From: a virus
Taxonomy: Duplodnaviria > Heunggongvirae > Uroviricota > Caudoviricetes
Length of the DNA stretch: 64,000 bases
Reading direction: 5' to 3' (one strand)
IMG/VR virus record: IMGVR_UViG_3300037471_000830
Part shown: piece after piece, positions 25,493 through 62,533 of the stretch
Layout of the letters: every line of letters begins with the position of its first letter
How positions within the stretch are numbered: the stretch's first letter is position 1
The notes under the pieces: model-generated
Told to the model about the DNA's origin: nothing
Database searches by the model: none
The model's input: only the letters and a program-made list of their open reading frames with translations
Made by a program: the position numbers and the translations under genes

Positions 25493-25555
25493 CCCTTGCA
25501 TATCCTATCGTCAGTGCTGACAATCAGTCAGTGCTGACGATCTATAAGGAGCATC

Positions 25556-26092
25556 ATGAAAATCGCAGGGCTCGACCTGGAAACCACCGGGTTCGACGCA
25601 TCCACCGGGGACCGCATCGTCGAAGTGGCACTGGTCACTTGCACGATGGACGAGCATGGCCGCCTTACGCCGGTCGATGAGTACGTCCGGCGCGTGAACC
25701 CCGAGCGTCCCATTCCCGCCGAAGCCACCAACGTCCACGGGATCACCTACGAGCAGGTTGCCGCCTGTCCGAAGTGGATCGCGGTAGCGCCCGAGGTCCA
25801 GCGCCGGCTGCGGGGCCTCGACAAGATCATCATCCACAACGAGGACTTCGACGCCCCGTTCCTGGCGCATGAGCTGTTGCGGATGGAACTGGAGCTGCCC
25901 GAGGTCCAGACCTACTGCACGATGAAGAACGCCAGGTGGGCCACCTACGATGGCAAGTTCCCCAACCTTGGTGAGCTGGCTTTCGCCCTGGGCGTGGAGT
26001 TCGACCCGAGCAAGGCGCACGGTGCGGAGTACGACGTTCTGAAAATGCTGGAGTGCTACGCAGAAGGGCGGCGGAGGGGCTTCTATGAATGA
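25556..26092 (+). CDS. dnaQ: DnaQ-like 3'-5' proofreading exonuclease (DEDDh)
   Basis: Exo I LDLETTG, Exo II HNEDFDAPFL, Exo III HGAEYD motifs. Confidence 0.8.
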   Translation: MKIAGLDLETTGFDASTGDRIVEVALVTCTMDEHGRLTPVDEYVRRVNPERPIPAEATNVHGITYEQVAACPKWIAVAPEVQRRLRGLDKIIIHNEDFDAPFLAHELLRMELELPEVQTYCTMKNARWATYDGKFPNLGELAFALGVEFDPSKAHGAEYDVLKMLECYAEGRRRGFYE

Positions 26093-27488: not shown

Positions 27489-28220
27489 GTGGCTGGTCCG
27501 AAACCCATCCCGCCGACCGTGACCGAGGAAGTCGGCTATGGCGGCACGACGCGCCAGGAGCTGAATCATCCCGCCTTCGGCAACATCATGGTCACGAAGC
27601 CGCAGGGCAACATTGGTGTGCTGCACGGCAGCGAGCTGAGGCACAGCTCCTGCGTGAAGATCACCATCTCCAACGCCAAGCTGGTGCGCGACCTGAGCAC
27701 CGACTGGCACCACTCGACGGACACGATCGTGGAAGTGGAGATGTCCGAAGCGCAGTGGGCAACCTTCATTTCCTCTATGGGCTATGGCGGTGGCGTGCCC
27801 TGCACGTTGGTCCACAAGCCGGAGGATGGCTTCAAGCTCCAGTGGGTGCCGTCCATCGAGCGCGTGGAGACCAGCCACGAGAAGTTCAGCCGCGAGATGC
27901 GCCGTGCCGTCCATGAGCGCCAGCAGGCCGTCAAGGACGGCGTGAAGCGCCTGCGCACGCTGCTGGAGACCGGCAAGCCCTCCATCAAGGAGCTGCGCGA
28001 AATCCTCAAGGCCCTGGAGAACAACCTGGACGGGATGCCGGGCACAGCGGCGTTCGTCATGGACTGCTTCCAGGAGGTCGTCGAGAAGGAGACCGAAGCG
28101 GCCAAGGTCGAGATTGAGGCGTTCGTCACCAACATGGCAATGCGTACCGGCATCAAGGCGCTGGCTGACGGGCACATGAACCTGCTGCCTGGCCCTGCGA
28201 AGAAGGAAGGTGAGAAATGA
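27489..28220 (+). CDS. hypothetical protein
   Basis: ORF track; GTG start 2 nt after previous stop. Confidence 0.55.
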   Translation: MAGPKPIPPTVTEEVGYGGTTRQELNHPAFGNIMVTKPQGNIGVLHGSELRHSSCVKITISNAKLVRDLSTDWHHSTDTIVEVEMSEAQWATFISSMGYGGGVPCTLVHKPEDGFKLQWVPSIERVETSHEKFSREMRRAVHERQQAVKDGVKRLRTLLETGKPSIKELREILKALENNLDGMPGTAAFVMDCFQEVVEKETEAAKVEIEAFVTNMAMRTGIKALADGHMNLLPGPAKKEGEK

Positions 28221-28567
28221 TCGAGAGCTTCATGGACGTGAAGGAGGGCGACGTTCTCGCTGAGGATCGTGGCCCTGGTCTTGGCGCCGCCCGGTGGGTG
28301 GAAGTCAGGGTAGTGAAAGTCACCGCCACGCAGATCAACTGCGGCCCGTATTCCAAGTTCCGTCGCAAGGACGGTTGGCAGCTTGGCGGTGGCTTGAATC
28401 CGCGCCGCCTGGCGCGGATCACCCCCGAGATTCGCCAGGCGCTCGATGACGAAAAGCTGCGCCTTTGGGGCAAGTACGGCGCGCAGCGTGACCTGGAGAA
28501 GCTGTCGCTGGAAGGGCTGAGAAAGGTCCGCGCCTTCGTGGAAGAACTGATCAAGGAGGAATCATGA
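28217..28567 (+). CDS. hypothetical protein
   Basis: ORF track; ATGA coupling. Confidence 0.5.
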   Translation: MIESFMDVKEGDVLAEDRGPGLGAARWVEVRVVKVTATQINCGPYSKFRRKDGWQLGGGLNPRRLARITPEIRQALDDEKLRLWGKYGAQRDLEKLSLEGLRKVRAFVEELIKEES

Positions 28568-42971: not shown

Positions 42972-43856
42972 ATTGCACAAGCGGAATTGCATAAGCCCAC
43001 CCACCAGGCCAAGGACAAATTCCAAGTCCTGACAGCCACTTAGAGCAATCCGCATCCAGAATTCTGCTCAAAACCGCAGTTCTGAATCAGACCAGAACCC
43101 GCAGCGAAGCCCTCAGAAAATCACACCCCAGCAAAGCCCATAGAACCGGGCTACAAGCGCGCCAAAACGCCCGGGAGTACCACGACAGCACCGAACCCGG
43201 CAAATCGCGCATAGAGCGTTTAAAGGGCTCGTCTCCAAAAGCCCAGGCGGGACCGAACTTCCCGCGATCTTCTTCCACCAAGGAAAGCTTCAAAGCCAAG
43301 GCTGCTTCCCCAAGCCGTCGCCGTAAAGATCAAAAGCTCTTACCTTCTTCTCTATATCTATATCTTTACGCTGAGGGGTGGATTCCCCAAGTCCCAAACT
43401 TCCACGCCAAGAAGGAAGACCTCACCGGAATCAGGAACCAACGCCTCAGCTGGATCGGCCAGGAAAACCGTAAGCGAGAAGACCTCGGCGGAATCCAACA
43501 CGGAGAAGGACACGGAGAGAAGACTGGACAGGCATGGAGAGAAGATCACCGGAGAGAAGGATCAACCCATAGGCTCAATGTAGGGAGAGAAGGCTGGATA
43601 GATCAGGAAGCCCATGTGTTCGGCTGTAGAGCTGGATATGCCTAGGAATGCGCCTGACCGTTCTCTTTGGCTTTTCGCCTCTCTGCCCTGTTCACCCGTT
43701 TTCCACCTCTCCGCCCTGTTTTCCATCCCTTCACCCGTTTTCCATTGGGTTGCCTATCCTGAAAAACCTCACATCGCCGCCAATCCTTGCACAGCCTCAC
43801 CCCGCGCCAAGGAAAGCCAAGGACTGCCTACACTCAGCAGCCAGAGGGAGAAAGCC

Positions 43857-44141
43857 ATGAACAATCCAAAGCCCGCCACATTCGTCCTGGTGATGCTCCG
43901 GGAGCTTGGCCGCGCCGAGATGTTCCTGACCACCGCCGAGGACGAACTTGCCCGCCACCAGATCATCTATGCCTTCTCTCCAAGGACGGAAGGCACCGGC
44001 TTTCAGATTCGCATCCGGCGTGAGTTCCTGGAGCCGGCCAACCTCATGGATGAGGAAAGCCTAGGCGCGGTGGAGCGCGCCATCGAGGCGGAGCTTCTGA
44101 CGCTGTTGACGCTCCACAGGGCCAAAGCCAAGGCTGCCTGA
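43857..44141 (+). CDS. hypothetical protein
   Basis: ATG 43857 with AGGGAGAAAGCC RBS inside ORF 43614..44141. Confidence 0.45.
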   Translation: MNNPKPATFVLVMLRELGRAEMFLTTAEDELARHQIIYAFSPRTEGTGFQIRIRREFLEPANLMDEESLGAVERAIEAELLTLLTLHRAKAKAA

Positions 44142-44275
44142 TTCATTCCTTCTTCTCTCCTGGGCCAAGGAAAGCCTAGGCGGGGTTGCAGGCGACGCAG
44201 CTCTCCTGTCTCTATCTCCTGAGTGCGGTCGGTGAAATACACCCATCGACAACAACGACACGGAGAGAAGAAGGA

Positions 44276-44578
44276 ATGCCCAAGATCATCCAAATCAAAG
44301 GTTTCTACGAAGGCGATCACATCGAGCACATCTTGGGCGAGCAGGCTGCGGAGCCAAGGGAGGACTGGAAGCGCATCCAGCGCGTTCCGCTCGTCGAGGG
44401 CCAGCCCTGGTTCAACGCCTACCCGATGACGGGTGGCGCGGTGATCGTCCAGCAGCACCGGATCGTGGAAGTGCGTGAGGCGACGCTGGACGACTTGGAG
44501 AAGGTCAAGCTGTGCATGCCCTTCAATCCTGCGTACCAGCGCGTCCTGGCGCTGTTCCAGGCTGAGGCGCCGGCATAG
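44276..44578 (+). CDS. hypothetical protein
   Basis: ATG 44276 with GGAGAGAAGAAGGA RBS; followed by terminator. Confidence 0.5.
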   Translation: MPKIIQIKGFYEGDHIEHILGEQAAEPREDWKRIQRVPLVEGQPWFNAYPMTGGAVIVQQHRIVEVREATLDDLEKVKLCMPFNPAYQRVLALFQAEAPA

Positions 44579-44602
44579 TCCTGGATGTGACCGGAGAGAA
44601 GG

Positions 44603-44622
44603 AGAGGGCTTCGGCCCTTTCA
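44603..44622 (+). terminator. terminator hairpin (AGGGC-TTCG-GCCCT + TTC)
   Basis: same GGGC-TTCG-GCCC core as other terminators in window. Confidence 0.5.
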
Positions 44623-44906
44623 TGAGCACGTCAGGGCCTAGGCATACGGCGGCGAGGCTGAAAATCCTTGGCTTCGAGGCCGGAAGCCGCCGTAGAGCTG
44701 CCGGAGTCCATGGAAAGCCTAGGCGCGGTTTTCCTATAAGACACTAGATGTAGTGTCCAGTCATGCCAAAAACTCGGGTTTTATGACTCCGTGGACACTA
44801 GATGTAGTGTTTGGCTGGTTCACAGGCGGCGTGCAGCGCCAGCGTGGCCTGCCTGGGGCTGACGGGCGTAATGAGGGCTCCCGAAACACGACCTGAGCCC
44901 GATTCC

Positions 44907-45152
44907 ATGAACATCCAGTTCGCGATCAATTCCACCCTGCATGCCGCTGCCTGTGGTCTCGATATGTCCGACTGCTGCGCAATAGGCATCCACGACAGCG
45001 AGGGCTGCATCCTGGCCCATGACGTGCTCCACCCCGAGACCCTGGAACGGCTGGTCTCGGCGGGCGTTCGCATCCTGCGCGGTCACGTCGCCATCCTGAG
45101 CTTGTGCGGTGTGGACTACGTGACGGTCAAGGCAGAGGTCACGGAGCTGTAA
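44907..45152 (+). CDS. hypothetical Cys-rich small protein
   Basis: in-frame ATG in ORF 44811..45152; followed by terminator. Confidence 0.4.
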   Translation: MNIQFAINSTLHAAACGLDMSDCCAIGIHDSEGCILAHDVLHPETLERLVSAGVRILRGHVAILSLCGVDYVTVKAEVTEL

Positions 45153-45155
45153 TCC

Positions 45156-45177
45156 GAGGGCTTCGGCCCTTTTGGGA
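45156..45177 (+). terminator. terminator hairpin (GAGGGC-TTCG-GCCCTT + TTGG)
   Basis: GC stem with TTCG loop and T-run. Confidence 0.5.
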
Positions 45178-45243
45178 ATCGACGCCATGGAAAGCCTAGG
45201 CGTGATGGTGTGCAAAAGAAAAGGAGCCGAAGCTCCTGGTCCT

Positions 45244-45468
45244 TCAGCCCGCCATTTCGGCGTGATACCGGGCGTCTGCCTGACGCTCGCGGTATATGGA
45301 AGCGTACTGTCCGATTTTCTTGATGGCGCCTTCCTTGGTTCGGCACTTCAGAATCACCTCCTCAATCTCCTTGTCCTCCCACGCTTCGACGATCACGTCC
45401 CAGCCTTCCTCGTAATGAGCGTTGGCGTGATCGCGGACGGCTTGGATCATTTCGTGCATCGGAACCAT
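45244..45468 (-). CDS. hypothetical small acidic protein (only minus-strand ORF in repeat region)
   Basis: ORF track; amino-acid composition more protein-like than overlapping + strand ORF 45172..45612. Confidence 0.45.
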   Translation of the reverse strand: MVPMHEMIQAVRDHANAHYEEGWDVIVEAWEDKEIEEVILKCRTKEGAIKKIGQYASIYRERQADARYHAEMAG

Positions 45469-45738
45469 GATGAATTTCGGTGTCGGTTGTTTCGGGAGCC
45501 CTCAGTATCTGAAGTGGGCGCAGGATCGTGGCGCTCCAAATTCAGGTTGCCTCAGAGGTCGCCGATGCCGGCAAGAAAGCCTAGGCATCTAAGCCCCAGC
45601 GCCAGGCTCTAAGCCGCTGTCCTAGGCTTTCCATGGCGCGCTTGCATGCCTGCGCAGCTTGCCTGGGGTCCGCCTGAAGCGGGCTTGCATAGTTCAGTCA
45701 TCGCTGAACTACAGCACAAACCAGACCGAGGAGTGATC

Positions 45739-45912
45739 CATGCAAGCCCTGAAGCCTTCCATCCTGCCCGCGCTGCCCATTGACGCCGACGCCCACGACG
45801 ACGAGCACTACGCCTACGAGCTGATGCAGGAGGAGCTGGAGATTCAGGAGCTGCGCAGCAAGCGCCAGCGCATCGCCCGTCCGCACTTTGCTGCCGGCAT
45901 GGAGCGCCACTG
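45739..45912 (+). CDS. hypothetical small acidic protein (57 aa)
   Basis: ATG 45739 preceded by GAGGAGTGATCC and the AGTTCAGTCATCGCTGAACT palindrome; translation read manually. Confidence 0.3.
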
Positions 45913-45914
45913 AA

Positions 45915-46130
45915 ATGCCGCGCTACTGGATTTTCAACGCCGACTACAAGCGCATCGCCGAAACCGACAGCCTGGCCGAAGCGCGCTTCTTCGCCGGCTT
46001 GGTGAGCTTCCACCCTGGCACGTCTATGGAGCGTCGCGTGTACGAGGCGGTGGACATGAAGACCACGCGCTGCATCCAGGCCCAGCCGCTGCTGCCTTTG
46101 GTGATGGCGGAGATGCTGGACAAGCAGTGA
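45915..46130 (+). CDS. hypothetical small protein
   Basis: ATG 45915 in ORF 45888..46130; followed by terminator. Confidence 0.4.
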   Translation: MPRYWIFNADYKRIAETDSLAEARFFAGLVSFHPGTSMERRVYEAVDMKTTRCIQAQPLLPLVMAEMLDKQ

Positions 46131-46140
46131 TCGCGCGACG

Positions 46141-46162
46141 GGAGCCTGTGGGCTCCTTCTCT
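46141..46162 (+). terminator. rho-independent terminator (GGAGCC-tgtg-GGCTCC + TTCTCT)
   Basis: perfect 6-bp GC stem plus T-rich tail. Confidence 0.55.
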
Positions 46163-46799
46163 ATGGGCCAGAGAACGCCTAGGACCGTCTGCCAGCGCCT
46201 TGGAGCGCGGCGGCATGGCTGGATTCCTTTGGCTTTGGAGAGCGCGGCGGCGCTGTAGAGGGCTCTGGAGAGGCTGCTGGTGCCTTGGAAAGCCGGCAAT
46301 GCCATGGAAAGCCTAGGCGTTGCTGGAGATGGATTTGGAGCTCTGGATTTCGGAGTACGGCGGACTGGCTGGAAATCCTTGGATTTTTGTGTACGGCGGC
46401 GAGGCTGGAAACGTTAGGAGTAATATCGCGCGGCGGGGCAGGGCGGTCGCTCAAAACCGCAGGTCGCCTTTTCGAGCGCGAGCGGCCGAATCCACGACAG
46501 AAGCCAAAATCCGCGTCAGAAGTCATTTCCACTGGAAATGCGAAAAACCGCAGGAGTCGCGGTTTTCACCGGAAAAGCGAATATGCGCAGGAGTCGCAGT
46601 TATTGCGACTGACGCGGGTTCCATGGGTTTTACGGGTCCACCAGTCTTTACGCTTTTTGGGTTTATTCCAGAAAGTTCGTTCCGCGTTGAATGGGGGCAT
46701 GCATAAGTCAGCAGTGAGTGCATAATGGGCACCAGTTCGCAGCACGGTGCAGCGAACGAAGCAGAGCAAAGTTGCTCAGTCACTAGTGAAAGGTTTCAC

Positions 46800-47703: not shown

Positions 47704-47774
47704 ATAATAAGTCAGTGGTGACTGTTTCACGTGAAACGGTCACCCCGCAAGTAAATCAGCAAAGCACTCAGATC

Positions 47775-49182: not shown

Positions 49183-50796
49183 TCAGGCCGCCTTCTTCAG
49201 GTCGGGGAAGCCTTCGGCGTCGTAATCGAAGTCCGCGCCGCCCAACAGGATGCCTTCGGCAAAGCCTGGGGTGTTGGACACGATCTCTCGGCGCTGCTTG
49301 GCGTGCTTCATCAGGTTCTCGTTGAAGCGGTCCTCGAAGTCCACGATGAAGCAGGTGTTCGGCCCCGCCTTCTTCGCCCGCAGGCCGCGACCGACACGCT
49401 GACGCAGCGCGACCTCGGCCTTGCCGCCACCGGCCAGGATCACCATCCCCACAGCCGGCACGTCCACACCCACATCCAGGATGGTCGTGCCAATGAGCAC
49501 GTCGAGCTTGCCGCTGCTCAGGGCTTGCAGCGCCCGCTTGCGCCCGACCTGATCGTCCTCACCCTGGATAAAGCTCGCCCGCAGACCCCGAGCCTCCAGC
49601 AGCTCCATCAGCCGCTCGCCGTGCTTCTTGTGCTGAACCAGCGCCATGACGGTGAGGCCACGGCCGACCGCGCGGTGAGCCTCGAAGGCAATCGCCTGGT
49701 TGCGCTCCTCGTTCTGCACGATGCCCAGCCGGTAAGCCGCCTGCCAGGCGGTGTTGCGCATCAGGTGCTCGGGCTTGGTGTGGAGCTGCACGAACTTGAA
49801 GATCGGGCGGGCCAGGATGCCGCGCTCGATGAGGGTCTGCTCCGAGACACGGATGGCGATCGGGCCGGAGGACGCCATCAGCCGCATGTTGGCTTCTTCG
49901 TCGCTGCGCATGAACGGCGTGGCGGTCAGCGCCAGCCGGTAGTGCGCGTTGATGCAGTGGCGCAGGATGTCGTAGTACGAGTTGCCGCCCGCCTCGTGGG
50001 CTTCCTCCAGGATCACGAACTCGAACTTGGACAGCAGGTTGATGGTCTGCTCGCGCAGCAGGGCTTGCTGACGCTGCTTTTCCGGCGTGTCCTTCGGGTC
50101 AGGCTCTGCCAGGCGAGCCACCAGGGTCTGCACCATGCCCACGGACATTTTCTTGATCGCGCTGCGCTCACGGCCATCGGCACCGACGATGGTGTGACCA
50201 AACTGGCCGTCGCCGAGCACGGACACCGACTGCTTCAAGTCCTTCTCGAACGTGTCCTTCATTTGGTACATGAGGACCGAGCGCGTGGTCAGGAACAGGG
50301 TGGGGCGGTTGATGCGGGCGAATGCCAGGCGGGCGATGCGTGATTTGCCGCCACCCGTGGCGACCTGGGCAATGATTTGGCCGTGCTTCACCAGCCGGCG
50401 CACAACTTCGGGCTGATAGTCGTAGCGCGGGTCTTCCGGGAACTCATCGACCACGGGATTCTCGGGACCAAGTGGCGCGGGCATGGGCTTTCTGACAAGC
50501 CGCACTTCGTAGCCATCGCGCTTCAGGTGCGCAGTGACGAAATGCACGAACCCGGCAGGGAAGGTGCCCTTTTTGAAATCGAGAAAACTGGATTTGCCAT
50601 CCCAGCGGCCGGTCTTAAACAGCATCGTGTTTTCGTGACCGGCCACGGTGTACGAAAGCGCGGTCTGGACCAGCAATTTGGCGTCGCGGTCGGGCTCGTG
50701 CAACTTGGCCGTGACGGCATTGGCAAGAATGGTGATCGTCTTCATTTTGGCTGTGGCTTGACCGCGCTCCATAAGGACATTATTATAAGTCATCAC
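49183..50796 (-). CDS. SF2 DEAD/DEAH-box DNA helicase (UvsW-like)
   Basis: motif I ATGGGKS, motif II ILEEAH, motif III LTATP, motif VI QRVGRGLR; alternative start at 50745 (MKTITIL). Confidence 0.8.
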   Translation of the reverse strand: MMTYNNVLMERGQATAKMKTITILANAVTAKLHEPDRDAKLLVQTALSYTVAGHENTMLFKTGRWDGKSSFLDFKKGTFPAGFVHFVTAHLKRDGYEVRLVRKPMPAPLGPENPVVDEFPEDPRYDYQPEVVRRLVKHGQIIAQVATGGGKSRIARLAFARINRPTLFLTTRSVLMYQMKDTFEKDLKQSVSVLGDGQFGHTIVGADGRERSAIKKMSVGMVQTLVARLAEPDPKDTPEKQRQQALLREQTINLLSKFEFVILEEAHEAGGNSYYDILRHCINAHYRLALTATPFMRSDEEANMRLMASSGPIAIRVSEQTLIERGILARPIFKFVQLHTKPEHLMRNTAWQAAYRLGIVQNEERNQAIAFEAHRAVGRGLTVMALVQHKKHGERLMELLEARGLRASFIQGEDDQVGRKRALQALSSGKLDVLIGTTILDVGVDVPAVGMVILAGGGKAEVALRQRVGRGLRAKKAGPNTCFIVDFEDRFNENLMKHAKQRREIVSNTPGFAEGILLGGADFDYDAEGFPDLKKAA

Positions 50797-50810
50797 TGAC
50801 TTCTATAAGC

Positions 50811-51470
50811 ATGTCCAGACTCAAGATCGAATATGGGCCGCCGACGCGGCTCGTGGCGAACGACTACAACGTCAATGTCGTCAGCCCGGAGAACCAGGCG
50901 AAGATCGACGCTTCCGTGTCGAGGTTTGGTTTCTTCAAGCCGATCCTCTGTCGGGAACTGCCTGACGGTCGGCTTGAAATCATCGGCGGCGAACACCGAT
51001 GGCAGGCCGCGCAACGCCTGGGCATTGCCGAGGTTCCCTTCATCAATCTCGGACCCCTGAGCGACGCGAAGGCCAAGGAAATTGGCATCGTGGACAACGG
51101 CCGCTATGGCGCCGACGACACGCTGCGCATGGCGGAATTGCTGGAGAGCATTGGTCTGGATGCCGATGAACTCGCCTCCTTCATGCCGTATTCCGAGAGC
51201 GACTTCAACGCGATCTTCTCGTCAGTCACTATAGAACTCGACGAGTTGGATCTTGACGAGGACGAGGCGAAGAAGCCCGAGTCGCCTCGCGAAAAGCCTG
51301 CCCAAACCGCCCAGGTGCTGCGTTTCAAGGTCGGCTTGGAAGACGCCGACTGGATTTCCAAGCTTGTGACCCGAACCATGAAGACGCAGGGCTTCAAGGA
51401 GGCCGACGAGCTGACCAACGCCGGCGACGCGCTGGTTCATCTGCTGCGAGGGATCAAGGATGCCGCGTGA
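50811..51470 (+). CDS. ParB N-terminal-domain (ParB/Srx) nuclease-like protein
   Basis: IIGGEHRWQAAQRLG matches ParB GxxRxxA box. Confidence 0.6.
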   Translation: MSRLKIEYGPPTRLVANDYNVNVVSPENQAKIDASVSRFGFFKPILCRELPDGRLEIIGGEHRWQAAQRLGIAEVPFINLGPLSDAKAKEIGIVDNGRYGADDTLRMAELLESIGLDADELASFMPYSESDFNAIFSSVTIELDELDLDEDEAKKPESPREKPAQTAQVLRFKVGLEDADWISKLVTRTMKTQGFKEADELTNAGDALVHLLRGIKDAA

Positions 51471-52017: not shown

Positions 52018-52406
52018 GACTTCCCCGACTGTTCCTGATGACCGCCGCGCTGGCGGCTTCCCTGAGCCTGACCGCCTGCCAGCCTGAAGTGGTGGCCGCC
52101 GCGCCGGCTGCTTCCGCGCCCCAGGTGGTTCCCGTACCCCAGGCGGCCGACAGCTTCGACACCGGCGACGCGGCCCTGGGTGCCGTGGCCGGCGCTGCGG
52201 CGGGCTACATGCTGGGCAAGGCCGCCTCGCCGAGCTACGCCCACCCGCCCCAACCGCAGACCGTGGTGGTGCATCAGCCGCCCCCGCAGAGCGCCTACTA
52301 CGGCCAGCGCAACGCCTACACGACCACGACGACCACCGTGCGCCGCAGCGGCTTCGGCGGCAAGACCGTGACCACCACGCGCACCGTGACGAGGGGCCGG
52401 CGATGA
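52014..52406 (+). CDS. lipoprotein with glycine-zipper (lipobox SLTAC; GAVAGAAAGYMLG) and Thr-rich C-terminus
   Basis: signal peptide plus LTAC lipobox read from translation. Confidence 0.55.
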   Translation: MRLPRLFLMTAALAASLSLTACQPEVVAAAPAASAPQVVPVPQAADSFDTGDAALGAVAGAAAGYMLGKAASPSYAHPPQPQTVVVHQPPPQSAYYGQRNAYTTTTTTVRRSGFGGKTVTTTRTVTRGRR

Positions 52407-53044
52407 AACCCAACATCCAAGTCTGGTCCGTCGAGGACGTGAAGCCCTACGAGGCCAACGCCAAGAAGCACCCACCCGAGCAGATTCGTCGCATCGCCAA
52501 GTCGATCAAGGAGTTCGGCTGGACGCAGGCCATCTCCGTGGACAAGGACGGCGTGATCATCGCCGGCCACGGCCGCCGCCTGGCTGCGATGGAGCTGGGG
52601 CTGAAGCAAGTGCCGGTGTGGGTGCGTGACGACCTCACGCCGGAGCAGGTCCGCGCCGCGCGGCTGGCCGACAACCGCGTGGCCGAGTCCGAGATCGACA
52701 CCAACCTCCTGCAAGCCGAGCTTCGCGCGTTGGACTTCGACCTCTCTGGCATCTTCGACGACAAGGAGCTGGCCTTCCTGGATGCCGACTTGGCCGAGCT
52801 CAACGCCGACGCCTTCGTCGCTGATCTGGACGCCGAAGTGGAGCGCCAGGCCGAGGAGACCCGCGCCAAGATCAAGGAAGTGGACGAGCGCACGATCCGG
52901 CTGGACCAGGCGTTCGGCTTCAAGAGCATCAAGGGCGCCGATGAGCGGGCGATTGCCATGTTCATGGCGCAGATCGAGAGCGAGACCGGCAAGGAGGGCG
53001 CCGAGGCCCTGGTCGAGCACGTCAAAACCTACCGCGGAAAGTAA
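52403..53044 (+). CDS. ParB N-terminal-domain nuclease-like protein (second copy)
   Basis: VIIAGHGRRLAAMELG ParB box. Confidence 0.6.
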   Translation: MKPNIQVWSVEDVKPYEANAKKHPPEQIRRIAKSIKEFGWTQAISVDKDGVIIAGHGRRLAAMELGLKQVPVWVRDDLTPEQVRAARLADNRVAESEIDTNLLQAELRALDFDLSGIFDDKELAFLDADLAELNADAFVADLDAEVERQAEETRAKIKEVDERTIRLDQAFGFKSIKGADERAIAMFMAQIESETGKEGAEALVEHVKTYRGK

Positions 53045-56535: not shown

Positions 56536-56822
56536 CTTCGACAACTTGTTTTTTTACCCCCTCAGCGTAAATATATATAGATAAGAAGAAGAACAGAGAA
56601 AGCTAAAACGTTTACGCTGAGCGAGGCGAAAAACAAGTCCAAGCTAAGTCAACGCTGACAGGGCGGAACGGAAAACGCAGCCCCAAAGAAGCCGCCAACA
56701 TGACCCGAAGCTACCCACGCCGCCCCTCACCGGATTGGCGGTCTCCCAAGCCCCTCAAAACGCGCCGGAACGTGACCGCGCTCGCGGTGCTCGCCCCGGT
56801 CTTCTCGTTGCATCAAAGATCA

Positions 56823-56863
56823 GTCAGCACTGACTTGACAAACGCCAAGGCATCGGTTATCTT
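56823..56863 (+). promoter_or_regulatory. sigma70-like promoter (TTGACA - 17 nt - TATCTT) overlapped by GTCAGCACTGAC palindrome, upstream of terS
   Basis: TTGACA 56835..56840; -10-like 56858..56863. Confidence 0.4.
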
Positions 56864-56932
56864 TGGCGCTCCTTTCAAAGTCATATCCCAGGGCGCCTTC
56901 TCCAGCGCCCATTTTTTTGCCCATTCGAGCCC

Positions 56933-57565
56933 ATGAGCGAAACGCCCGCCAAGAAGCCGCTGACGCCGCGCCTCAAGGCGATTGCGGAAGCCCTGTGGAA
57001 GACCGGCGAGTTCAAGAGCCGCCGCGAGCTGGCAAAGCACCTGGAGGTCAGCGAGAGCGCCCTGGCCGCCTTCATCAAGATCGAGGACAAGGGCAAGGCC
57101 GTCGAGAAGGTCAAGGAGGCGGTCGAGGAGGCTGCGGTCGAGGCTGCGGTCGAGGAGCTGACGCTGCACCAGCGCCGCGTCCAGGACACCAAGGAGCAGC
57201 ACTACAAGATGGCCGAGCACATCGCCGGCTTCGTGTGGAAGGAGCTGCTCAAGGCCAAGTCCGAAGGCATCCCGTTCGGCGTGGTTGCGCCCAACATCAA
57301 GGCGCTGCACGAGGCGATGGCCGTGCTCAACAAGGCACGTGTCGAACGCTACGCGACCTTGGGCATCTCCGAGGACGACGTGGGCGAGGAGGAAGTGCCG
57401 GAGCTGTTCATCTCCGAGCTGACCCAGGAGCAGGTCGAGGAAATGCGCCTGGCTCAAGAAGATGACGACTCGGTAGGCGAAATGCCCGATCCCGAGGAAG
57501 ACCCTGGCAAGGGCGTCGTGGACACCACCGACGACGAGGACGACGGCGTGGAGGAGCTGTCCTGA
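56933..57565 (+). CDS. terS: terminase small subunit (putative)
   Basis: N-terminal HTH-like segment, highly acidic C-terminus, immediately upstream of and coupled to terL (ATGA). Confidence 0.55.
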   Translation: MSETPAKKPLTPRLKAIAEALWKTGEFKSRRELAKHLEVSESALAAFIKIEDKGKAVEKVKEAVEEAAVEAAVEELTLHQRRVQDTKEQHYKMAEHIAGFVWKELLKAKSEGIPFGVVAPNIKALHEAMAVLNKARVERYATLGISEDDVGEEEVPELFISELTQEQVEEMRLAQEDDDSVGEMPDPEEDPGKGVVDTTDDEDDGVEELS

Positions 57566-58839
57566 TGGCTGTCATGCGTCGTCGCTTCGACCTGCGTCTG
57601 CACGCCAAGCAGATGGAGGTCTTCCGTTGCAAGGCGCGCTTTCGGGTTGTGGTCGCCGGCCGACGCTGGGGCAAGACGGCCCTGTCGCGCGTGCTCATGA
57701 TCAAGGCCGCGCAGAAGCCGCGCCAGAAAATCTGGTACATCGCGCCGACCTACCGGATGGCAAAGCAGATCATGTGGACCGATCTGCTGGAAGCCATCCC
57801 GAAGAAGTGGATCGCCAAGGTCAACGAGACCACGCTGATGATCCGCCTGATCAACGGGTCGCGGATCGAGCTCAAGGGCGCCGACAAGTCCGACACGCTG
57901 CGCGGCGTGGGCATTCACTTCCTCGTGCTCGACGAGTTCCAGGACATGACGCCCGACACCTGGACCAAGGTGCTGCGCCCGACCCTGGCCGACACCCAGG
58001 GCGACGCCATCTTCATCGGCACCCCCAAGGCGTACAACTACCTCTACGAGCTTTACAAGCTCGGCCAGCGCGGCGACTTCTACACGGACAACAAGGGCAA
58101 GGTCCGCAAGAACCACTGGATGAGCTGGCAGTTCATGACTGCCACGAGCCCCTTCATTCCGCTGTCGGAGCTGGAGGCGGCCAAGCGCGACATGGACGAG
58201 AAGTCCTACAAGCAGGAGTTCGAGGCGTCCTTCGAGACCATGAGCGGCCGGGTGTACTACCCGTTCGACCGCAACGTCCACGTCGGCAGCTACGCCTTCA
58301 ACCCCAAGCTGCCGATTTGGGTGGGCATGGACTTCAACATCGACCCCATGTCGGCCGTGATCCTGCAAAAGCAGCCGGACGGCGCACTGTGGGCGGTGGA
58401 TGAGGTTGTGCTGGGCAGCTCCAACACCGAGGAGGTCTGCGAGGAGCTGGAGAAGCGGTACTGGCGCCACCAGGACCACACCGTCATCTACCCCGACCCC
58501 GCAGGCGGCCAGCGCCAGCACGCGCGAGGCGAGACCGACATCGACATCCTGCGCGAGAAAGGCTTTCGCAAGGTCAAGTACCGCCGCAAGCACCCCGCCG
58601 TCGCCGATCGCGTCAACGCCGTCAACCGCATGCTGCGCGCTGCGGACGGCTCCGTGCGCATGTTCGTCAACGAGAAGTGCAAGCACTTCATCGGCGCGCT
58701 GGAGCAGACCATCTACAAGAAGGGCTCCCGCGACGTGGACAAGGACGCCGGCGTGGAACACGCAGCGGACGCGGCCGGCTACTGCATCGAGCTGGAATTC
58801 CCGCTGCGCAAGATCGCTATCGCTGGCCTTTCGCGCTGA
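57565..58839 (+). CDS. terL: terminase large subunit
   Basis: Walker A VVVAGRRWGKT, Walker B/DE (FLVLDEFQDM), C-terminal RNaseH-like nuclease acidic residues; size 424 aa. Confidence 0.85.
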   Translation: MAVMRRRFDLRLHAKQMEVFRCKARFRVVVAGRRWGKTALSRVLMIKAAQKPRQKIWYIAPTYRMAKQIMWTDLLEAIPKKWIAKVNETTLMIRLINGSRIELKGADKSDTLRGVGIHFLVLDEFQDMTPDTWTKVLRPTLADTQGDAIFIGTPKAYNYLYELYKLGQRGDFYTDNKGKVRKNHWMSWQFMTATSPFIPLSELEAAKRDMDEKSYKQEFEASFETMSGRVYYPFDRNVHVGSYAFNPKLPIWVGMDFNIDPMSAVILQKQPDGALWAVDEVVLGSSNTEEVCEELEKRYWRHQDHTVIYPDPAGGQRQHARGETDIDILREKGFRKVKYRRKHPAVADRVNAVNRMLRAADGSVRMFVNEKCKHFIGALEQTIYKKGSRDVDKDAGVEHAADAAGYCIELEFPLRKIAIAGLSR

Positions 58840-58870: not shown

Positions 58871-60520
58871 ATGGACGTGAAGAATCTCAAGCCCGGCGAA
58901 AGCGTCGTCGTCGATCTGACCAAGCTCTCTGCGGAGCAGGAACGCCTGCTCACCGGCGAGCAAAAGCGCCTGCGCCGGCTGATCGAGCGTCGCCACCCCG
59001 AGTACAAAAACAGCCTGTCGCACTGGCGCTTCCTTGAAGCCACCTATGAGGGCGGCCGAGACTGGTTCGACCGCAACGTCTTCAAGTTCTACAAGGAAGG
59101 CAAGGACGAGTTCGGCGATCGTGTTGCGCGGGCCTACCGCTTCAATCACACGAAGGAGGTTGTGGACTTGCTGAACAAGTACCTGTTCAAGCAGGCCATC
59201 GACCGAAACGACACTGCCCCGGAGAGTCTTCGGGCGTTCTGGAAGCGCGCCACGCGCAAGGGCCTGTCGATGACGGAGCTCGCGCGCCAAGTGAGCAAGC
59301 TCACGTCCATCGGCGGGCGCGTGGGCATCGTCGTGGACCGACCCAACACGTCCGCGCTGTCCGTGGCCGAGGCCAAGAAGGTCGAGAACCAGCCCTACGC
59401 CTATGTGGTCACGCAGCAGCAGTTGCTGGACTACTCGTTCGCCGAGGACGGCAAGCTCAATTGGGTGCTGATCCTGGAGTGCAAGCGCGACGACGAAGAC
59501 CCGATGGAGTCCGGTGGCGACGTGAAGGAGCGGTATCGCCTTTGGACCCGCAGTGGCTGGGAACTCTACGAGGAGCGCACCGAGGGCCGCAGGAAGAAGG
59601 TGGTCCTGATCGACAGCGGCGATCACAGCCTGGGCGAAGTGCCCGTCATCCTGGCCGACCACATCATCGGCGATGACGACTACGAGGCCCCGTCCCTGAT
59701 CGACGACATCGCCTACCTGGACCGCGCGGTCGCCAACTACCTCAGCAACCTGGACGCGATCATCCAGGACCAGACCTTCAGCCAGCTCGCCATGCCGGCG
59801 CAGAACCTGCTGCCTGGCGAGGAGGCGGCCAACAAGGTGATGGAGATGTCCACCAAGCGAGTCTTCCTCTACGACGGCGAGAACGGCGGCAAGCCCGAGT
59901 ACCTGTCGCCCGATCCGAAGCAGGCCGAGCTGATCCTGGCGGTGATCAACAAGATCATCTCCGAGATTTACCACACGGTCGGCCTCGCCGGCGAGCGCAC
60001 CAAGCAGGACAACGCCGTGGGCATCGACAACTCCAGCGGCGTGGCGAAGGCGTTCGACTTCGAGCGCGTGAACGCGCTGCTGGCGTCCAAGGCCGACGCG
60101 CTGGAGCTGGTGGAGAACCAGATCGCGCGCCTGGTGTGCCTGTGGAACGGCGAGAAGTACGAGGAAGACCTCGTGTCCTACGCCGACAACTTCGACACCC
60201 GCGATCTGTACGACGAATTCGACATCGCCAGCCGCCTGGTGCTCGTGGAGGCCCCGGACGCCGTGCGCCGCGTGCAGATGGCGACCCTGGTGGACAAGCT
60301 GTTCCCGCAGCTCAAGGCCGACATTCGCAAGGAGTTCGAGAAGGAGCTCAAGGACTGGCCGGCTGACCCCATGGAGGAAGCCATGAAGCTGGCCCAGGCC
60401 GCAGGCAAGGCTCCTACGGGCAGCATCAGCGCCAGCAAGGGCGGTGACAGTGCCAAGCCTGCGGCCGGATCGCCCAAGACCCCGACCCGCCAGGGTCAGG
60501 TCACGAAGGACACCAAGTAA
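58871..60520 (+). CDS. portal protein (putative)
   Basis: 549-aa protein immediately after terL and before scaffold/MCP; synteny-based. Confidence 0.6.
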   Translation: MDVKNLKPGESVVVDLTKLSAEQERLLTGEQKRLRRLIERRHPEYKNSLSHWRFLEATYEGGRDWFDRNVFKFYKEGKDEFGDRVARAYRFNHTKEVVDLLNKYLFKQAIDRNDTAPESLRAFWKRATRKGLSMTELARQVSKLTSIGGRVGIVVDRPNTSALSVAEAKKVENQPYAYVVTQQQLLDYSFAEDGKLNWVLILECKRDDEDPMESGGDVKERYRLWTRSGWELYEERTEGRRKKVVLIDSGDHSLGEVPVILADHIIGDDDYEAPSLIDDIAYLDRAVANYLSNLDAIIQDQTFSQLAMPAQNLLPGEEAANKVMEMSTKRVFLYDGENGGKPEYLSPDPKQAELILAVINKIISEIYHTVGLAGERTKQDNAVGIDNSSGVAKAFDFERVNALLASKADALELVENQIARLVCLWNGEKYEEDLVSYADNFDTRDLYDEFDIASRLVLVEAPDAVRRVQMATLVDKLFPQLKADIRKEFEKELKDWPADPMEEAMKLAQAAGKAPTGSISASKGGDSAKPAAGSPKTPTRQGQVTKDTK

Positions 60521-60589: not shown

Positions 60590-61426
60590 ATGCCTCTGTG
60601 GAAACAAGCCCTTCTGGCTCGCCTGAAGATGAACAAGGCCGACGACGGCCTGGGTGGCGGTGGTGGCGGTGGCGGCACCGACGACAAGGGCGGCGCTGAC
60701 AAGACCCCGCCCGAAGACAAGGGCGGCGACAAGAAGCCCACGGACGAGGAGGCCAAGCTGATCAAGGAGGTCATGAAGCGCAAGGAGGAAGCCCAGGCGC
60801 TCAAGGCCCAGCTCGACCAGGCCAATGGTCTCAAGGCTCAGCTCGACGCCCTGGGCGGCCTGGAGGCGCTGCAAGCACTGGTCAAGGAGCGCCAGGATGC
60901 CGAGACCAAGGCCCTGGAAGCCAAGGGCGACTACGAGCGCCTGAAGGGCAAGATGGCCGAGGCTCACGCCAAGGAAATCGACACCCTCAAGGCTCAGGTT
61001 GCCGAAGCCGGCAAGGCCGTCGAGGGTCTGAAGGCGCAGCTCATGGAAGCCACCGTGGGCAGCGAGTTCGGTCAGTCCTCGTTCATCAAGGACGAGCTGC
61101 TGCTGACGCCCTCCAAGACGCGCGCCCTGTACGGCTCGCATTTCGACTTCGTGGACGGCAAGGTGGTGGGCTATGACAAGCCGCGTGGTGCCGCCAGTCG
61201 CACGCCGCTGGTCGATGGTGCGGGCGTGCCCGTGAGTTTCGACGCCGCGATGAAGGCGATCATCGAAGCCGATCCCGAAAAGGATCACGTGCTCAAGAGC
61301 AAGGCCAAGCCTGGCGCCGGTAGCGATTCCAATCGCGGCGGCTCAACGCCGAAGAAGCCGGAATACTCCAGCGGCCTGGATCGTATTTCTGCAGGCCTGG
61401 CCCAATTGACCAAGGGCCAGAAGTAA
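60590..61426 (+). CDS. scaffolding protein (putative)
   Basis: Gly-run then long Ala/Lys/Glu coiled coil, located between portal and MCP. Confidence 0.55.
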   Translation: MPLWKQALLARLKMNKADDGLGGGGGGGGTDDKGGADKTPPEDKGGDKKPTDEEAKLIKEVMKRKEEAQALKAQLDQANGLKAQLDALGGLEALQALVKERQDAETKALEAKGDYERLKGKMAEAHAKEIDTLKAQVAEAGKAVEGLKAQLMEATVGSEFGQSSFIKDELLLTPSKTRALYGSHFDFVDGKVVGYDKPRGAASRTPLVDGAGVPVSFDAAMKAIIEADPEKDHVLKSKAKPGAGSDSNRGGSTPKKPEYSSGLDRISAGLAQLTKGQK

Positions 61427-61458
61427 TTCTGATCGCTGCCTTAATAAGTCACTGATGA

Positions 61459-61488
61459 CTTGACAATTTGGCATTGTCCATGTTATAT
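61459..61488 (+). promoter_or_regulatory. sigma70-like promoter (TTGACA - 17 nt - TTATAT) flanked by two copies of the AAGTCA-N4-TGACTT palindrome
   Basis: -35 TTGACA 61459..61464, -10 TTATAT 61482..61487; palindrome 61445..61460 overlaps -35, second palindrome 61491..61507. Confidence 0.55.
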
Positions 61489-61561
61489 TGTCAGTCATCG
61501 GTGACTAAGAGCGACGTTAGCCTCCGAAGCAATCCACCCCAATCTGTAGAAGGACACTGAG

Positions 61562-62479
61562 ATGCCTTTGCTTCGTGCTGTGGCTGACAAGCTCAGCGAG
61601 AACGATCTGGTTGCTGGCGTGATCACCGAGATCATCGACCGCGACGAACTGTTTGCCCTGGTGCCGTTCACCAAGACCAGCGGCAAGGCTTACGTTTACA
61701 ACCGTGAGCACCCCGACAACCTGGCGAACGAGATGTCCGGCTTCATCGCTTCCGGCGATGAGATCCAGGAGTCGAGCGCCGACTTCAACACCGTCACGAG
61801 CCTGCTCAAGATTCTGGCTGGCGACGTGGACGTGGACAAGTTCTCGATGGAAGTCGAGAGCGACGTGAACGACCAACTGGCGATCCAGATCGCCCTGAAG
61901 GCCAAGTACGTCGCCCGCAAGTTCCGCGAGAAGCTGATCAACGGCGACAGCGCGGTGAACCCGCTGGAGTTCGACGGCCTGAAGAAGTACGTGTCGCAGA
62001 CCGGCCGCGAGTTCGCTGCCGGTGCCAACGGCGCGGCTCTGAGCCTGGGCATGCTGGACGAGCTGGTGGACATGGTGCCGGCTGGCGTCGATGCGCTGAT
62101 GATGAACGGCCGCACGATCCGCAAGTACCGCGCCCTGCTGCGCGCCACGGGCGGCAACGACGCGGCGATGATGGAAATCCCCAACTTCGGCGTGCCGGTG
62201 CTGGGCTTCAACGGCATTCCCATCATCCGCAACGACTTCATCGCCACCAACGAGGCCCAGGGCACCGCGAACGACGCCACGTCGATCTACGCGCTGCGCC
62301 TGAACGAGCTGGACGGCTTCCATGCCCTGTTCGGCGGCGACGCTGCCGGCCTGCGCATCGAGTCGATCGGCACGGTGCAGAACAAGGACGCGCTGCGCAC
62401 CCGCGTGAAGTGGTACTGCGGCACCGCGCTGAAGTCCACGCTGAGCCTGGCCCGCCTGAAGGGCGTGACCGCTGCCTGA
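61562..62479 (+). CDS. major capsid protein (HK97-fold, putative)
   Basis: 305 aa, follows scaffold, strong promoter and RBS (GAAGGACACTGAGATG), strong terminator downstream; HK97-like composition. Confidence 0.65.
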   Translation: MPLLRAVADKLSENDLVAGVITEIIDRDELFALVPFTKTSGKAYVYNREHPDNLANEMSGFIASGDEIQESSADFNTVTSLLKILAGDVDVDKFSMEVESDVNDQLAIQIALKAKYVARKFREKLINGDSAVNPLEFDGLKKYVSQTGREFAAGANGAALSLGMLDELVDMVPAGVDALMMNGRTIRKYRALLRATGGNDAAMMEIPNFGVPVLGFNGIPIIRNDFIATNEAQGTANDATSIYALRLNELDGFHALFGGDAAGLRIESIGTVQNKDALRTRVKWYCGTALKSTLSLARLKGVTAA

Positions 62480-62505
62480 TAATAAGTCAGCACTGACGTA
62501 AAATA

Positions 62506-62533
62506 GGGCGTGAGGCAACTCACGCCCTTTTTC
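62506..62533 (+). terminator. rho-independent terminator (GGGCGTGAG-gcaac-CTCACGCCC + TTTTTC)
   Basis: perfect 9-bp stem plus T-run right after capsid gene. Confidence 0.7.

Follow-up and report, generated by a model that had tools for sequence, protein, structure and literature searches.

What switches on the capsid gene of a tailed phage is the question raised by a 135-nt gap in IMG/VR record IMGVR_UViG_3300037471_000830, between a scaffold-like gene and the gene for the major capsid protein (MCP). We analysed a stretch of 64,000 nt of this record (hereafter the window), which is part of a tailed-phage genome with a G+C content of 61%, ~80% of the window being coding. A preliminary description had placed in this gap a host-type promoter flanked by two palindromes, and had proposed that capsid expression depends on the host RNA polymerase (RNAP) and is gated by a phage factor. 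By its sequence and its conservation, a real, conserved sigma70-type promoter (P_mcp) serves the capsid gene, and the palindromes are not incidental, being instances of a motif that recurs through the window and has the appearance of a regulator binding site. Our preferred reading, to which we give an even chance, is that P_mcp is a late promoter read by host RNAP and controlled, probably repressed, by a phage-encoded DNA-binding protein acting at many sites, with RNA signals layered on top.

The capsid promoter and its two palindromes

The features of the gap and its borders are as follows.

60590-61426, + strand: gene of a scaffold-like DUF6651 protein, directly 5' of the gap
61445-61460, + strand: upstream motif copy, TAAGTCA-CTGA-TGACT, its position kept in 44 relatives
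61460-61465, + strand: -35 hexamer of P_mcp, TTGACA; relatives have TTGACA, TTGCAA or TGTTCA at the equal position
61481-61489, + strand: extended -10 of P_mcp, with TG at 61481-82, one base, then TATATT at 61484-89; the consensus of relatives is tTgtGgTAt.gT
61491-61506, + strand: downstream motif copy, TCAGTCA-TCGG-TGACT, centre ~+3.5, over the predicted start
61496-61497, + strand: predicted transcription start of P_mcp, the C or A of (T)CA directly before TCGG, placed 7-8 nt past the -10; CA or TA before TCGG is kept in relatives
61550-61554, + strand: Shine-Dalgarno sequence AAGGA, 7 nt 5' of the MCP ATG at 61562 and also kept in relatives
61562-62479, + strand: MCP gene

The gap that contains P_mcp reads, in order, TAAT-A-AGTCACTGATGACT-TGACA-ATTTGGCATTGTCCATGT-TATATT-GTC-AGTCATCGGTGACT-AAGAGCGACGTTAGCC. 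In a consensus scan the best reading of the promoter was TTGACA, an 18-nt spacer and TATATT preceded by TG, which matches 11 of 12 hexamer positions; the TTGACA/17-nt/TTATAT version proposed earlier (61483-88) is a valid description of the same site, one base off. Sites of at least 11/12 arose in 3.5% of 200 order-2 Markov simulations of the window, and in none of them together with TG. P_mcp thus has the hexamers, spacing and TGn element of a sigma70 promoter as well as orthologous conservation, and the gene downstream of it does encode the major capsid protein, as had been assigned. The reverse strand was considered for a bidirectional promoter, which was rejected since only CTGACA...CAAATT-type elements are offered there.

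None of the ~80 window proteins was recognised in Pfam and PHROG scans as an RNA polymerase, sigma factor, Mor/C, Q, CRP/FNR or classical helix-turn-helix (HTH) repressor. The lack of a phage RNAP or sigma factor among these proteins fits dependence on host RNAP, and the initial proposal is supported in part.

Both palindromes lie where they had been described, the upstream one touching the -35 and the downstream one covering the predicted +1. The upstream palindrome AGTCACTGATGACT is AGTCA-CTGA-TGACT at 61447-61460, its final T being the first T of the -35 hexamer, and its centre at 61453.5 falls at about -41.5 to -43.5, varying with the start site chosen. The downstream palindrome AGTCATCGGTGACT is AGTCA-TCGG-TGACT at 61493-61506; the string given for it earlier, GTCAGTCATCGGTGAC, is the same site displaced by 3 nt. 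The two are mutually reverse-complementary at 13 of 14 positions and, together with a second inverted repeat between them (61461-74 with 61480-93), they turn 61447-61506 into one imperfect palindrome of ~60 nt.

A dispersed motif linked to promoters

The motif T(A/C)AGTCA-N4-TGA, where N4 is a spacer of four nucleotides, occurs 29 times on the + strand of the window and never on the - strand, compared with ~1 copy expected. T at position -2 and A or C at -1 are found in 29/29 copies, and the 7-mer T[AC]AGTCA alone occurs 31 times on the + strand versus once on the - strand. An unbiased enumeration of all palindromes with 5-nt arms in the window ranked AGTCA-N4-TGACT first; its perfect form is present six times versus 0.03 expected, so that these palindromes are far beyond chance. 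Two palindrome registers are visible within the motif, TCAG...CTGA and AGTCA...TGACT, and the N4 spacer of the window is nnRC. According to approximate gene calls made for this analysis, 27 of the 29 copies lie outside coding sequence, many just past stop codons and some within promoters. Many of them follow an A/T-rich hexamer that resembles a -10 and has the invariant T as its last base (A at -6 in 15/29, in a genome of 61% G+C), as in TATAGT-TC-AGTCA, TAAACT-A-AGTCA and GATAAT-A-AGTCA. The whole set spans 9264-62498.

Motif copies, + strand, position of the A of AGTCA: 9266, 9898, 13651, 14822, 15365, 17710, 19426, 20298, 22475, 25526, 26449, 26980, 30820, 34128, 34229, 37106, 38273, 45696, 46706, 46778, 47710, 50788, 53044, 56647, 56822, 58850, 61447, 61493, 62485

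The motif is linked to promoters. Each of the three best sigma70-like sites of the window (at least 10/12; 61460, 56835 and 50758) adjoins a perfect motif copy, and two of the four weaker ones (62476 and 15360) are likewise motif-linked. Among 171 distinct motif instances, counted over the window and its relatives, the start of TAnnnT falls exactly on motif position +14 in 56 cases and on +36 in 27, and that of TTG on +13 in 22, which indicates that the motif sits at discrete registers relative to the promoter. In the first register it lies inside a 17-18 nt spacer (centre ~-19); in the second it is fused to the -35 hexamer (centre ~-42); in the third it covers the start site (centre ~+3), as at 50788, at 61493 and in the group with xATAGT-TC-AGTCA (19426, 34128, 34229, 45696). 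Promoters of the replication region are marked as well as those of the late region. The clearest cases besides P_mcp, with the late genes around them, are listed here.

50758-50801, + strand: promoter TTGACC-17-TATTAT (10/12) of a ParB/Noc-like gene, with a perfect motif copy at 50786-50801 over the start, directly 5' of the gene at 50811-51470
56820-56918, + strand: P_terS, late promoter of a small-terminase-like gene (ATG 56933), with motif TCAGTCAGCACTGACT at 56820-35, TTGACA at 56835-40 and TATCTT at 56858-63
57565-58839, + strand: large terminase gene, in the late gene block near the window end
58871-60520, + strand: portal gene, in the same block
62476-62533, + strand: post-capsid cassette, with a motif copy (62483-62498) in the spacer of a promoter-like CTGATA...TAAAAT (62476-62504) and an intrinsic terminator at 62505-62528 plus a T run

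P_terS has the geometry of P_mcp, with the motif fused to the -35 hexamer, and both share the fusion of TGACT to TGACA, TGACTTGACA. Its leader contains a terminator ahead of the ATG (hairpin 56891-56910, or 56891-56918 with its T7 run), and the promoter with this terminator is kept in relatives from Acinetobacter, Massilia and Paraburkholderia. As a side observation, the leader terminator could be an attenuation or antitermination checkpoint of the packaging and head operon. At the post-capsid cassette, the terminator stem begins directly past the -10-like hexamer here and 2-5 nt past it in relatives, so that a restart transcript would begin inside the terminator stem. Also observed among the motif copies was a tandem pair, CGTCAGTGCTGACA and AGTCAGTGCTGACG, 17 bp apart at 25509-25539, just 5' of an RNase T-like 3'-5' exonuclease gene (25556-26092).

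Conservation across a phage-plasmid family

Relatives of the MCP number more than 200 in IMG/VR, many on contigs of 100-118 kb, and the MCP family is found on 953 PLSDB plasmids of Klebsiella, E. coli, Acinetobacter, Enterobacter, Yersinia and Salmonella. Further relatives lie on contigs from Massilia, Paraburkholderia, Faunimonas and others, at no more than 60% capsid identity in that contig scan; no relative exceeds 75% identity, except for one short contig that is identical across the capsid gene. The element belongs to the SSU5/pHCM2/Acinetobacter-type phage-plasmid family.

The P_mcp layout is kept 5' of the MCP gene in at least 44 distinct relatives with MCPs ~50-60% identical and host G+C contents of 39-68%, which makes the motif-bearing capsid promoter an old feature of the family. 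The upstream regions of the 44 relatives align as aaTaAGTCAccg.TGAcTTGaca-(~12 nt)-tTgtGgTAt.gT-(7-9 nt)-ATCGGTGAC(T)TAGAGcGACtTAggccc...AAGGA...ATG. Across these relatives the -35 hexamer drifts, but neither the TGn-extended -10 nor the place of the upstream palindrome changes. The right half of the downstream copy, GGTGACT, is nearly invariant, and its left half, nTCA, is found in ~60%. Three relatives (L005, L007, L014) have TTGTAA-17-TA(T/A)AGT followed by a motif variant over the start, which is the only copy at their P_mcp. In SSU5 only 26 nt separate the scaffold gene from the capsid gene, so that P_mcp is lacking; the scaffold-capsid intergenic region of phage nickie is different, and a blastn search of GenBank phages with the conserved P_mcp leader returned nothing meaningful.

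The motif itself is conserved in kind and variable in form. In the complete, syntenic 112-kb plasmid NZ_CP031445.1 of A. baumannii it occurs 28 times, 23 of them perfect, and it is the top palindrome there too; its consensus, aTCAGTCA(G/C)TACTGACTGAt, is a perfect 18-bp dyad with symmetric A/T flanks (palindrome of 18-28 bp). Other lineages have other half-sites (TAAGT...ACTTA in SSU5, AATCA-N4-TGATT in Rhizobium phage RHph_N1_10), and N4 is uniform inside each element but not from one element to the next (AAAC in a Paraburkholderia element, ACAT/ATTT in Faunimonas, GTAC/CTAC in Acinetobacter). The late motif sites are syntenic in the window, its IMG/VR relatives, the Acinetobacter plasmid and the Massilia and Paraburkholderia contigs: 5' of TerS (fused to the -35), at the TerL-portal junction (in the spacer), 5' of the MCP gene and directly past the MCP stop. 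The post-capsid cassette stands at the equal place in relatives and in the Acinetobacter plasmid, where it recurs at the ends of several genes, and the arrangement of promoter and motif at the ParB/Noc-like gene is syntenic in the Acinetobacter plasmid and, with its own motif variant, in SSU5. Conservation in kind combined with variation by lineage points to a co-evolving phage-encoded protein and not to a universal host factor.

Two side observations concern these relatives. About 4 kb 3' of the capsid gene, three of them (L089:10200, L092:10236, L094:10196) have a late gene (product MASD/MASN...) with a -10-like hexamer and a motif copy 5' of it, and a conserved palindrome, CTTTGCAAAGGAG, overlaps its ribosome-binding site; the equivalent region here would lie beyond the window end. 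The window region 460-25492 encodes a large replication and repair set (DNA polymerase III alpha-like protein, SSB, 5'-3' exonuclease, UvsX-like recombinase, SbcCD, class I ribonucleotide reductase, ThyX and an SPFH protein) that is syntenic with the Acinetobacter plasmid.

Predicted RNA structures over the promoter and leader

Two hairpins can be drawn at the locus, both on the + strand.

61447-61506, + strand: ~60-nt imperfect palindrome, forming a hairpin in read-through RNA; outer arms are the two motif copies, inner arms 61461-74 and 61480-93
61498-61527, + strand: 5'-terminal leader hairpin with outer stem UCGG/CCGA, inner stem CUAA/UUAG and loop GAGCGACG

The leader hairpin is the minimum-free-energy fold in the window and in 27 of 29 relatives, and would begin at +2 if transcription starts at A61497. 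In relatives, the right half of the downstream copy and the sequence after it, ATCGGTGAC(T)TAGAGCGACTTAGGCCCGAA, form the most conserved stretch of the whole MCP upstream region. When the alignment was anchored solely on the invariant loop, pairing in the inner helix reached 83%, compared with 4-61% when the partner is slid; one of its pairs is CG in 14, UA in 5 and UG in 5 sequences, and another UA in 22 and AU in one, the window being the AU case. G.U pairs are frequent and A.C rare, which favours an RNA made from the + strand. RNAalifold on a plain MAFFT alignment of the leader gave no pairs, the 3' arm being misaligned there. The loop sequence AGAGCGAC was not enriched elsewhere in the window. 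We rejected a direct repeat, GACTTAG-N3-GACTTAG, as a 10-bp-phased protein site in the leader, since its variants are complementary and not identical (CTAA/TTAG here, CTTA/TAAG in L026).

A hairpin that begins at +2 is the classic design of a stabiliser protecting the 5' end. By analogy, such a hairpin would suit a very abundant late mRNA that ends at the strong terminator 62505-62528. As possible readers of the conserved loop we noticed two RNA-binding candidates: a weak match to the phage ProQ C-terminal-like domain at 28217-28567 (E = 3e-4, below the Pfam cut-off), which may be an RNA-binding protein, and an annotated Hfq-like gene in the Acinetobacter relative (L086 9706-10245).

The larger hairpin places the promoter itself in a stem, the -35 region (GACAAT) being complementary to the -10/discriminator region (ATTGTC). 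Read-through RNA of 61427-61565 folds at -44 kcal/mol (z = -4.1), and the whole promoter lies in one hairpin in ~30 of 42 relatives (z of -5 to -10, mononucleotide shuffles). Its inner part without the motif arms has a mean z of -1.75 (dinucleotide shuffles), with sequences that differ between relatives, and P_terS shows a weaker form of this promoter-in-hairpin design. The locus thus has, in silico, the structurally conserved, imperfect intercistronic duplex of at least ~20 bp that is typical of RNase III-type sites. An intrinsic terminator at 61447-61506 was rejected: no U/T run follows 61506, and the terminator scan was blank there. Rfam (15) searches of the whole window gave no match at the gathering threshold, with only generic, miRNA-like hairpin matches far below it at the locus, and no tRNA or tmRNA was found in the window. 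The P_mcp hairpin is probably, judging by its predicted fold, an RNA-level processing or stability layer laid over the DNA signals and acting in read-through late transcripts.

Probable repression by a phage-encoded protein and its alternatives

From the sequence features, their statistics and the conserved geometry, we predict the following course of events. P_mcp would act as a strong sigma70-type promoter for host RNAP and provide a separate capsid transcript within the late block of packaging and head genes of a ~110-kb phage-plasmid. A phage-encoded, sequence-specific protein would occupy both P_mcp copies and ~27 others and keep their promoters off, which may serve silencing of the plasmid prophage or temporal control. 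Once the protein is lost, P_mcp would fire; the transcript would start at about A61497, carry the stem-loop 61498-61527, probably for mRNA stability or as a handle for a protein, and end mostly at the terminator 62505-62528. When transcription reads through from an upstream late promoter, the motif copies and the -35 and -10 regions would instead fold into the ~60-nt processing or stability hairpin. Repression is favoured by the varied registers of the motif (spacer, start site and -35 edge), all of which would occlude RNAP, and it is favoured over activation by the good -35 and -10 hexamers and 17-18 nt spacers of the motif-linked promoters; we also counted for it the three relatives that keep only the start-site copy. 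The gating by a phage factor that had been proposed for the locus is therefore supported in part, in that the motif looks like a regulator site with lineage variants.

Several points weigh against this reading. The reading has a predicted regulator only, to which no binding protein is assigned. In the early and middle regions, a -35 hexamer cannot be recognised at many of the copies. The motif copies of the window never vary in the left half and are degenerate past TGA in the right half, and all 29 copies lie on the gene strand, neither of which a symmetric dimeric repressor would predict; oriented, stoperator-like action or an overlapping start-site constraint might explain both. A class II activator, too, would classically be centred at ~-42. 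The leader hairpin is of ordinary stability (z = +1.0), so that its support comes from conservation. At P_mcp, all four upstream N4 variants (CCGA, CCGG, CTGA and CTGG) pair with the downstream UCGG, half of them by G.U, as selection on RNA would have it. The right half of the downstream copy doubles as the 5' arm of the conserved leader hairpin, which is why it does not vary among relatives, and the RNA hairpin is a sufficient explanation for this invariance. As copies of a genome-wide, promoter-linked motif the palindromes look like operators, the downstream copy only in part.

The search for a regulator in the window left a single multi-site DNA-binding candidate, the ParB/Noc-like protein of 219 aa (50811-51470), in which no HTH is recognisable. 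The protein has a ParB_N domain (E = 9e-12) and its best PDB match is Noc (2e-10), with GGEHR in place of GERR in the arginine-patch motif; no HTH, KorB or KorB_C domain was detected. Its C-terminal segment QVLRFKV...NAGDALVHLL is conserved and merely resembles a strand-helix-helix, and comparing the beta-strand-like part of this segment across motif variants was uninformative. Homologs also occur in nickie-like phages, where the motif was not seen. The ParB/Noc-like protein has a paralog in the window, encoded at 52403-53044. Another candidate is a cI-like HTH protein of relatives (WP_001107553.1): in the Acinetobacter plasmid a divergent cI-like HTH gene lies beside the integrase and ParA genes with motif copies nearby, and its homolog would be expected ~6 kb 5' of dnaE, the first gene of the window, and so outside the window. 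It is doubtful, although conceivable from the sequence, that the motif is the loading site of the ParB/Noc-like protein, and that this protein, perhaps under the control of a nucleotide switch, silences essentially every lytic promoter of SSU5/pHCM2/Acinetobacter-type phage-plasmids in the manner of KorB, with the 60 nt of the capsid promoter dual-coded as promoter and operators in DNA and as a processing or stability hairpin in RNA.

Among the alternatives to the repressed late promoter, the one that survives best places the function in RNA: the copies would be the arms of the ~60-nt hairpin, such as an RNase III-type site for processing or stabilisation between scaffold and capsid, the downstream copy would double as an arm of the leader stem, and the promoter would be constitutive with neither copy an operator. 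The strong fold of the read-through RNA and its recurrence in most relatives, the sequence-variable inner part that still folds, the retained N4 pairing, the covariation in the leader inner helix and the weaker like design at P_terS all speak for it, and the hairpin could indeed be the chief reason why the two P_mcp copies mirror each other. The hairpin cannot, however, explain the dispersed motif in general, because the right half decays without a preference for wobble pairs and the left half of start-site copies would go untranscribed. Opposite motif position G1, the window copies carry C in 12, G in 9, A in 7 and T in 1, a distribution without any hairpin-preserving pattern; the invariant left half, degenerate right half and two registers indicate that linear sequence is conserved and not structure; and the fixed -35 and -10 registers and lineage-specific N4 are features of DNA. 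We consider this account unlikely on balance.

A positive factor binding the motif seems less probable still, a distinctly long shot in our estimate. It could be an activator of the class II type, resembling FNR/CRP (at -41.5) or Mu Mor/C (at -43.5), or else a lambda Q-like antiterminator loaded on DNA and picked up at late promoters. The upstream copy does lie at ~-42 in both P_mcp and P_terS with the identical fusion, the motif position is kept in relatives whose -35 decays to TGTTCA, a conserved leader terminator stands before the first gene at P_terS as in lambda pR'-tR', and a strong terminator follows the capsid gene. Yet with a perfect TTGACA and an extended -10 an activator is unneeded here, the motif also lies within 17-18 nt spacers and over starts, where activators do not act, and ~25 copies are outside the late region. 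The window proteins offer no detected Mor/C, Q, CRP/FNR or sigma-like candidate, and the initially transcribed region has no clear -10-like pause element.

The motif might also be a promoter or start-site element for host RNAP modified by a phage factor, in which case the capsid gene would have up to three tandem starts and the palindromy would be incidental. The co-orientation of 29/29 copies with genes, the -10-like hexamer ending in the invariant T at -2 before many of them, and the lack of an upstream -35 consensus at most copies are what such an element would look like. It would fit poorly with the symmetric Acinetobacter motif and its A/T flanks, a palindrome of 18-28 bp, and with the relatives in which the motif often lies between a good -35 and -10 or 5' of the -35; moreover, conservation peaks in the would-be discriminator and not in the -10 hexamer, unlike in known sigma-dependent promoters, and no sigma factor or RNAP-modifying protein was detected in the window. 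We regard this explanation as very improbable. A chance resemblance without function, to which one might be led by the seven sigma70-like sites of the window being no excess over shuffled sequence (~9), is effectively refuted by the layout's conservation in at least 44 relatives over host G+C contents of 39-68%, by the rarity of an 11/12 site with TG in simulations and by the ~30-fold enrichment of the motif.

Other repeats of the window and significance

Other repeats were observed in the window. At 47723-47738, TGTTTCACGTGAAACG matches the chromosomal ParB parS consensus TGTTNCACGTGAAACA at 15/16 positions and abuts the perfect motif copy at 47710-47723; going by this parS-like sequence, the plasmid prophage may be partitioned through a ParABS-type site, possibly the host's. 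Nine copies of GGAAAGCCTAGGC (up to 2 mismatches) lie at 43811-46323, versus 1.7 expected, within the largely non-coding 42.9-46.8 kb region, where few convincing genes are seen; the array has the look of iterons or of a region for plasmid maintenance. The 17-mer GACACTAGATGTAGTGT, which has a palindromic core, occurs in two exact copies 54 bp apart (44740-44756 and 44794-44810), near small genes at 44907-45152 (+ strand) and 45244-45468 (- strand), an arrangement reminiscent of the paired operators that another regulator would classically use.

A single promoter with operators is a familiar kind of control. In the literature searched we found no motif, regulator, lysis-lysogeny circuit or late-gene circuit described for SSU5-like phage-plasmids, and the promoter-operator-leader module of a genome-wide, regulon-like motif appears to be undescribed there. 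Considering that the capsid family is present on ~950 PLSDB plasmids and many environmental elements, a motif that marks most promoters would give a direct handle on the silencing and induction of these phage-plasmids. Its lineage-specific variants would offer a way to predict immunity groups, and the regulon could easily be mapped by DNA affinity purification sequencing (DAP-seq) or chromatin immunoprecipitation (ChIP). A promoter inside a hairpin whose arms are operators is an unusual sharing of bases by DNA-level and RNA-level signals.

Comparison with known systems

Phage T7 has intercistronic RNase III sites, and stabilising 5' stem-loops are present in the leaders of T7 gene 10 and ompA. 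The locus described here is similar in having a long imperfect hairpin between late cistrons 5' of the capsid gene and a stem-loop 1-2 nt from the predicted 5' end. It differs in that the predicted hairpin is built from the promoter itself, the -35 pairing with the -10 and the motif copies with each other.

Among activators of class II, FNR binds TTGAT-N4-ATCAA at -41.5 and Mu Mor/C a dyad at -43.5. The upstream copy is likewise a 5-N4-5 dyad at ~-42 touching the -35 region. A class II site would go with a weak or absent -35 and a single register, whereas here the -35 is a perfect TTGACA and the motif also occurs in spacers and over start sites. Of a lambda Q-type module, the window contains the terminators at 56891 (P_terS leader) and 62505, with no clear pause element and no Q-like protein in the window.

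P1 is also a plasmid prophage, whose C1 repressor silences lytic functions through a repeated operator scattered over the genome. The C1 operators are asymmetric 17-mers that are not known to occur at late promoters, and the P1 late promoters have a conserved inverted repeat beside the -10, no recognised -35 hexamer and a need for the activator Lpa. In contrast, one motif marks early, middle and late promoters here, and the late promoters have a good -35.

KorB of plasmid RK2, a member of the ParB family, recognises the short palindrome OB at about a dozen or more sites, some of them just 5' of the -35 of repressed promoters. Palindromes immediately 5' of -35 hexamers are what we find at P_mcp and P_terS, where TGACT is fused to TGACA. 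The element encodes a ParB/Noc-like protein, a candidate DNA-binding protein, and the promoter of its gene carries a perfect motif copy. Unlike KorB, this protein has no KorB, HTH or KorB_C domain, has GGEHR and not GERR, and has a C-terminus that looks different.

Cluster A mycobacteriophages such as L5 and Bxb1 contain 20-30 repressor sites oriented with transcription, some in promoters and most of them intergenic, whose consensus varies between related phages and tracks their repressors (PMC6550527). The 29 oriented sites in 64 kb described here, some in promoters, many past stop codons and with lineage variants, are alike in copy number and intergenic position, in orientation and in variation of the consensus. 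The L5 sites are 13-14 bp long and without dyad symmetry, and are bound by the repressor as a monomer (PMC6550527). The present motif has dyad symmetry, perfect in 6/29 copies here and in 23/28 in the Acinetobacter plasmid, and its membership in the stoperator class fails on this one defining feature. Phage family and hosts, too, are unrelated to those of L5. Overall, we favour a multi-site repressor logic which, by analogy, would resemble that of P1 C1, of the RK2 KorB operators and especially of the L5 operator/stoperator system.

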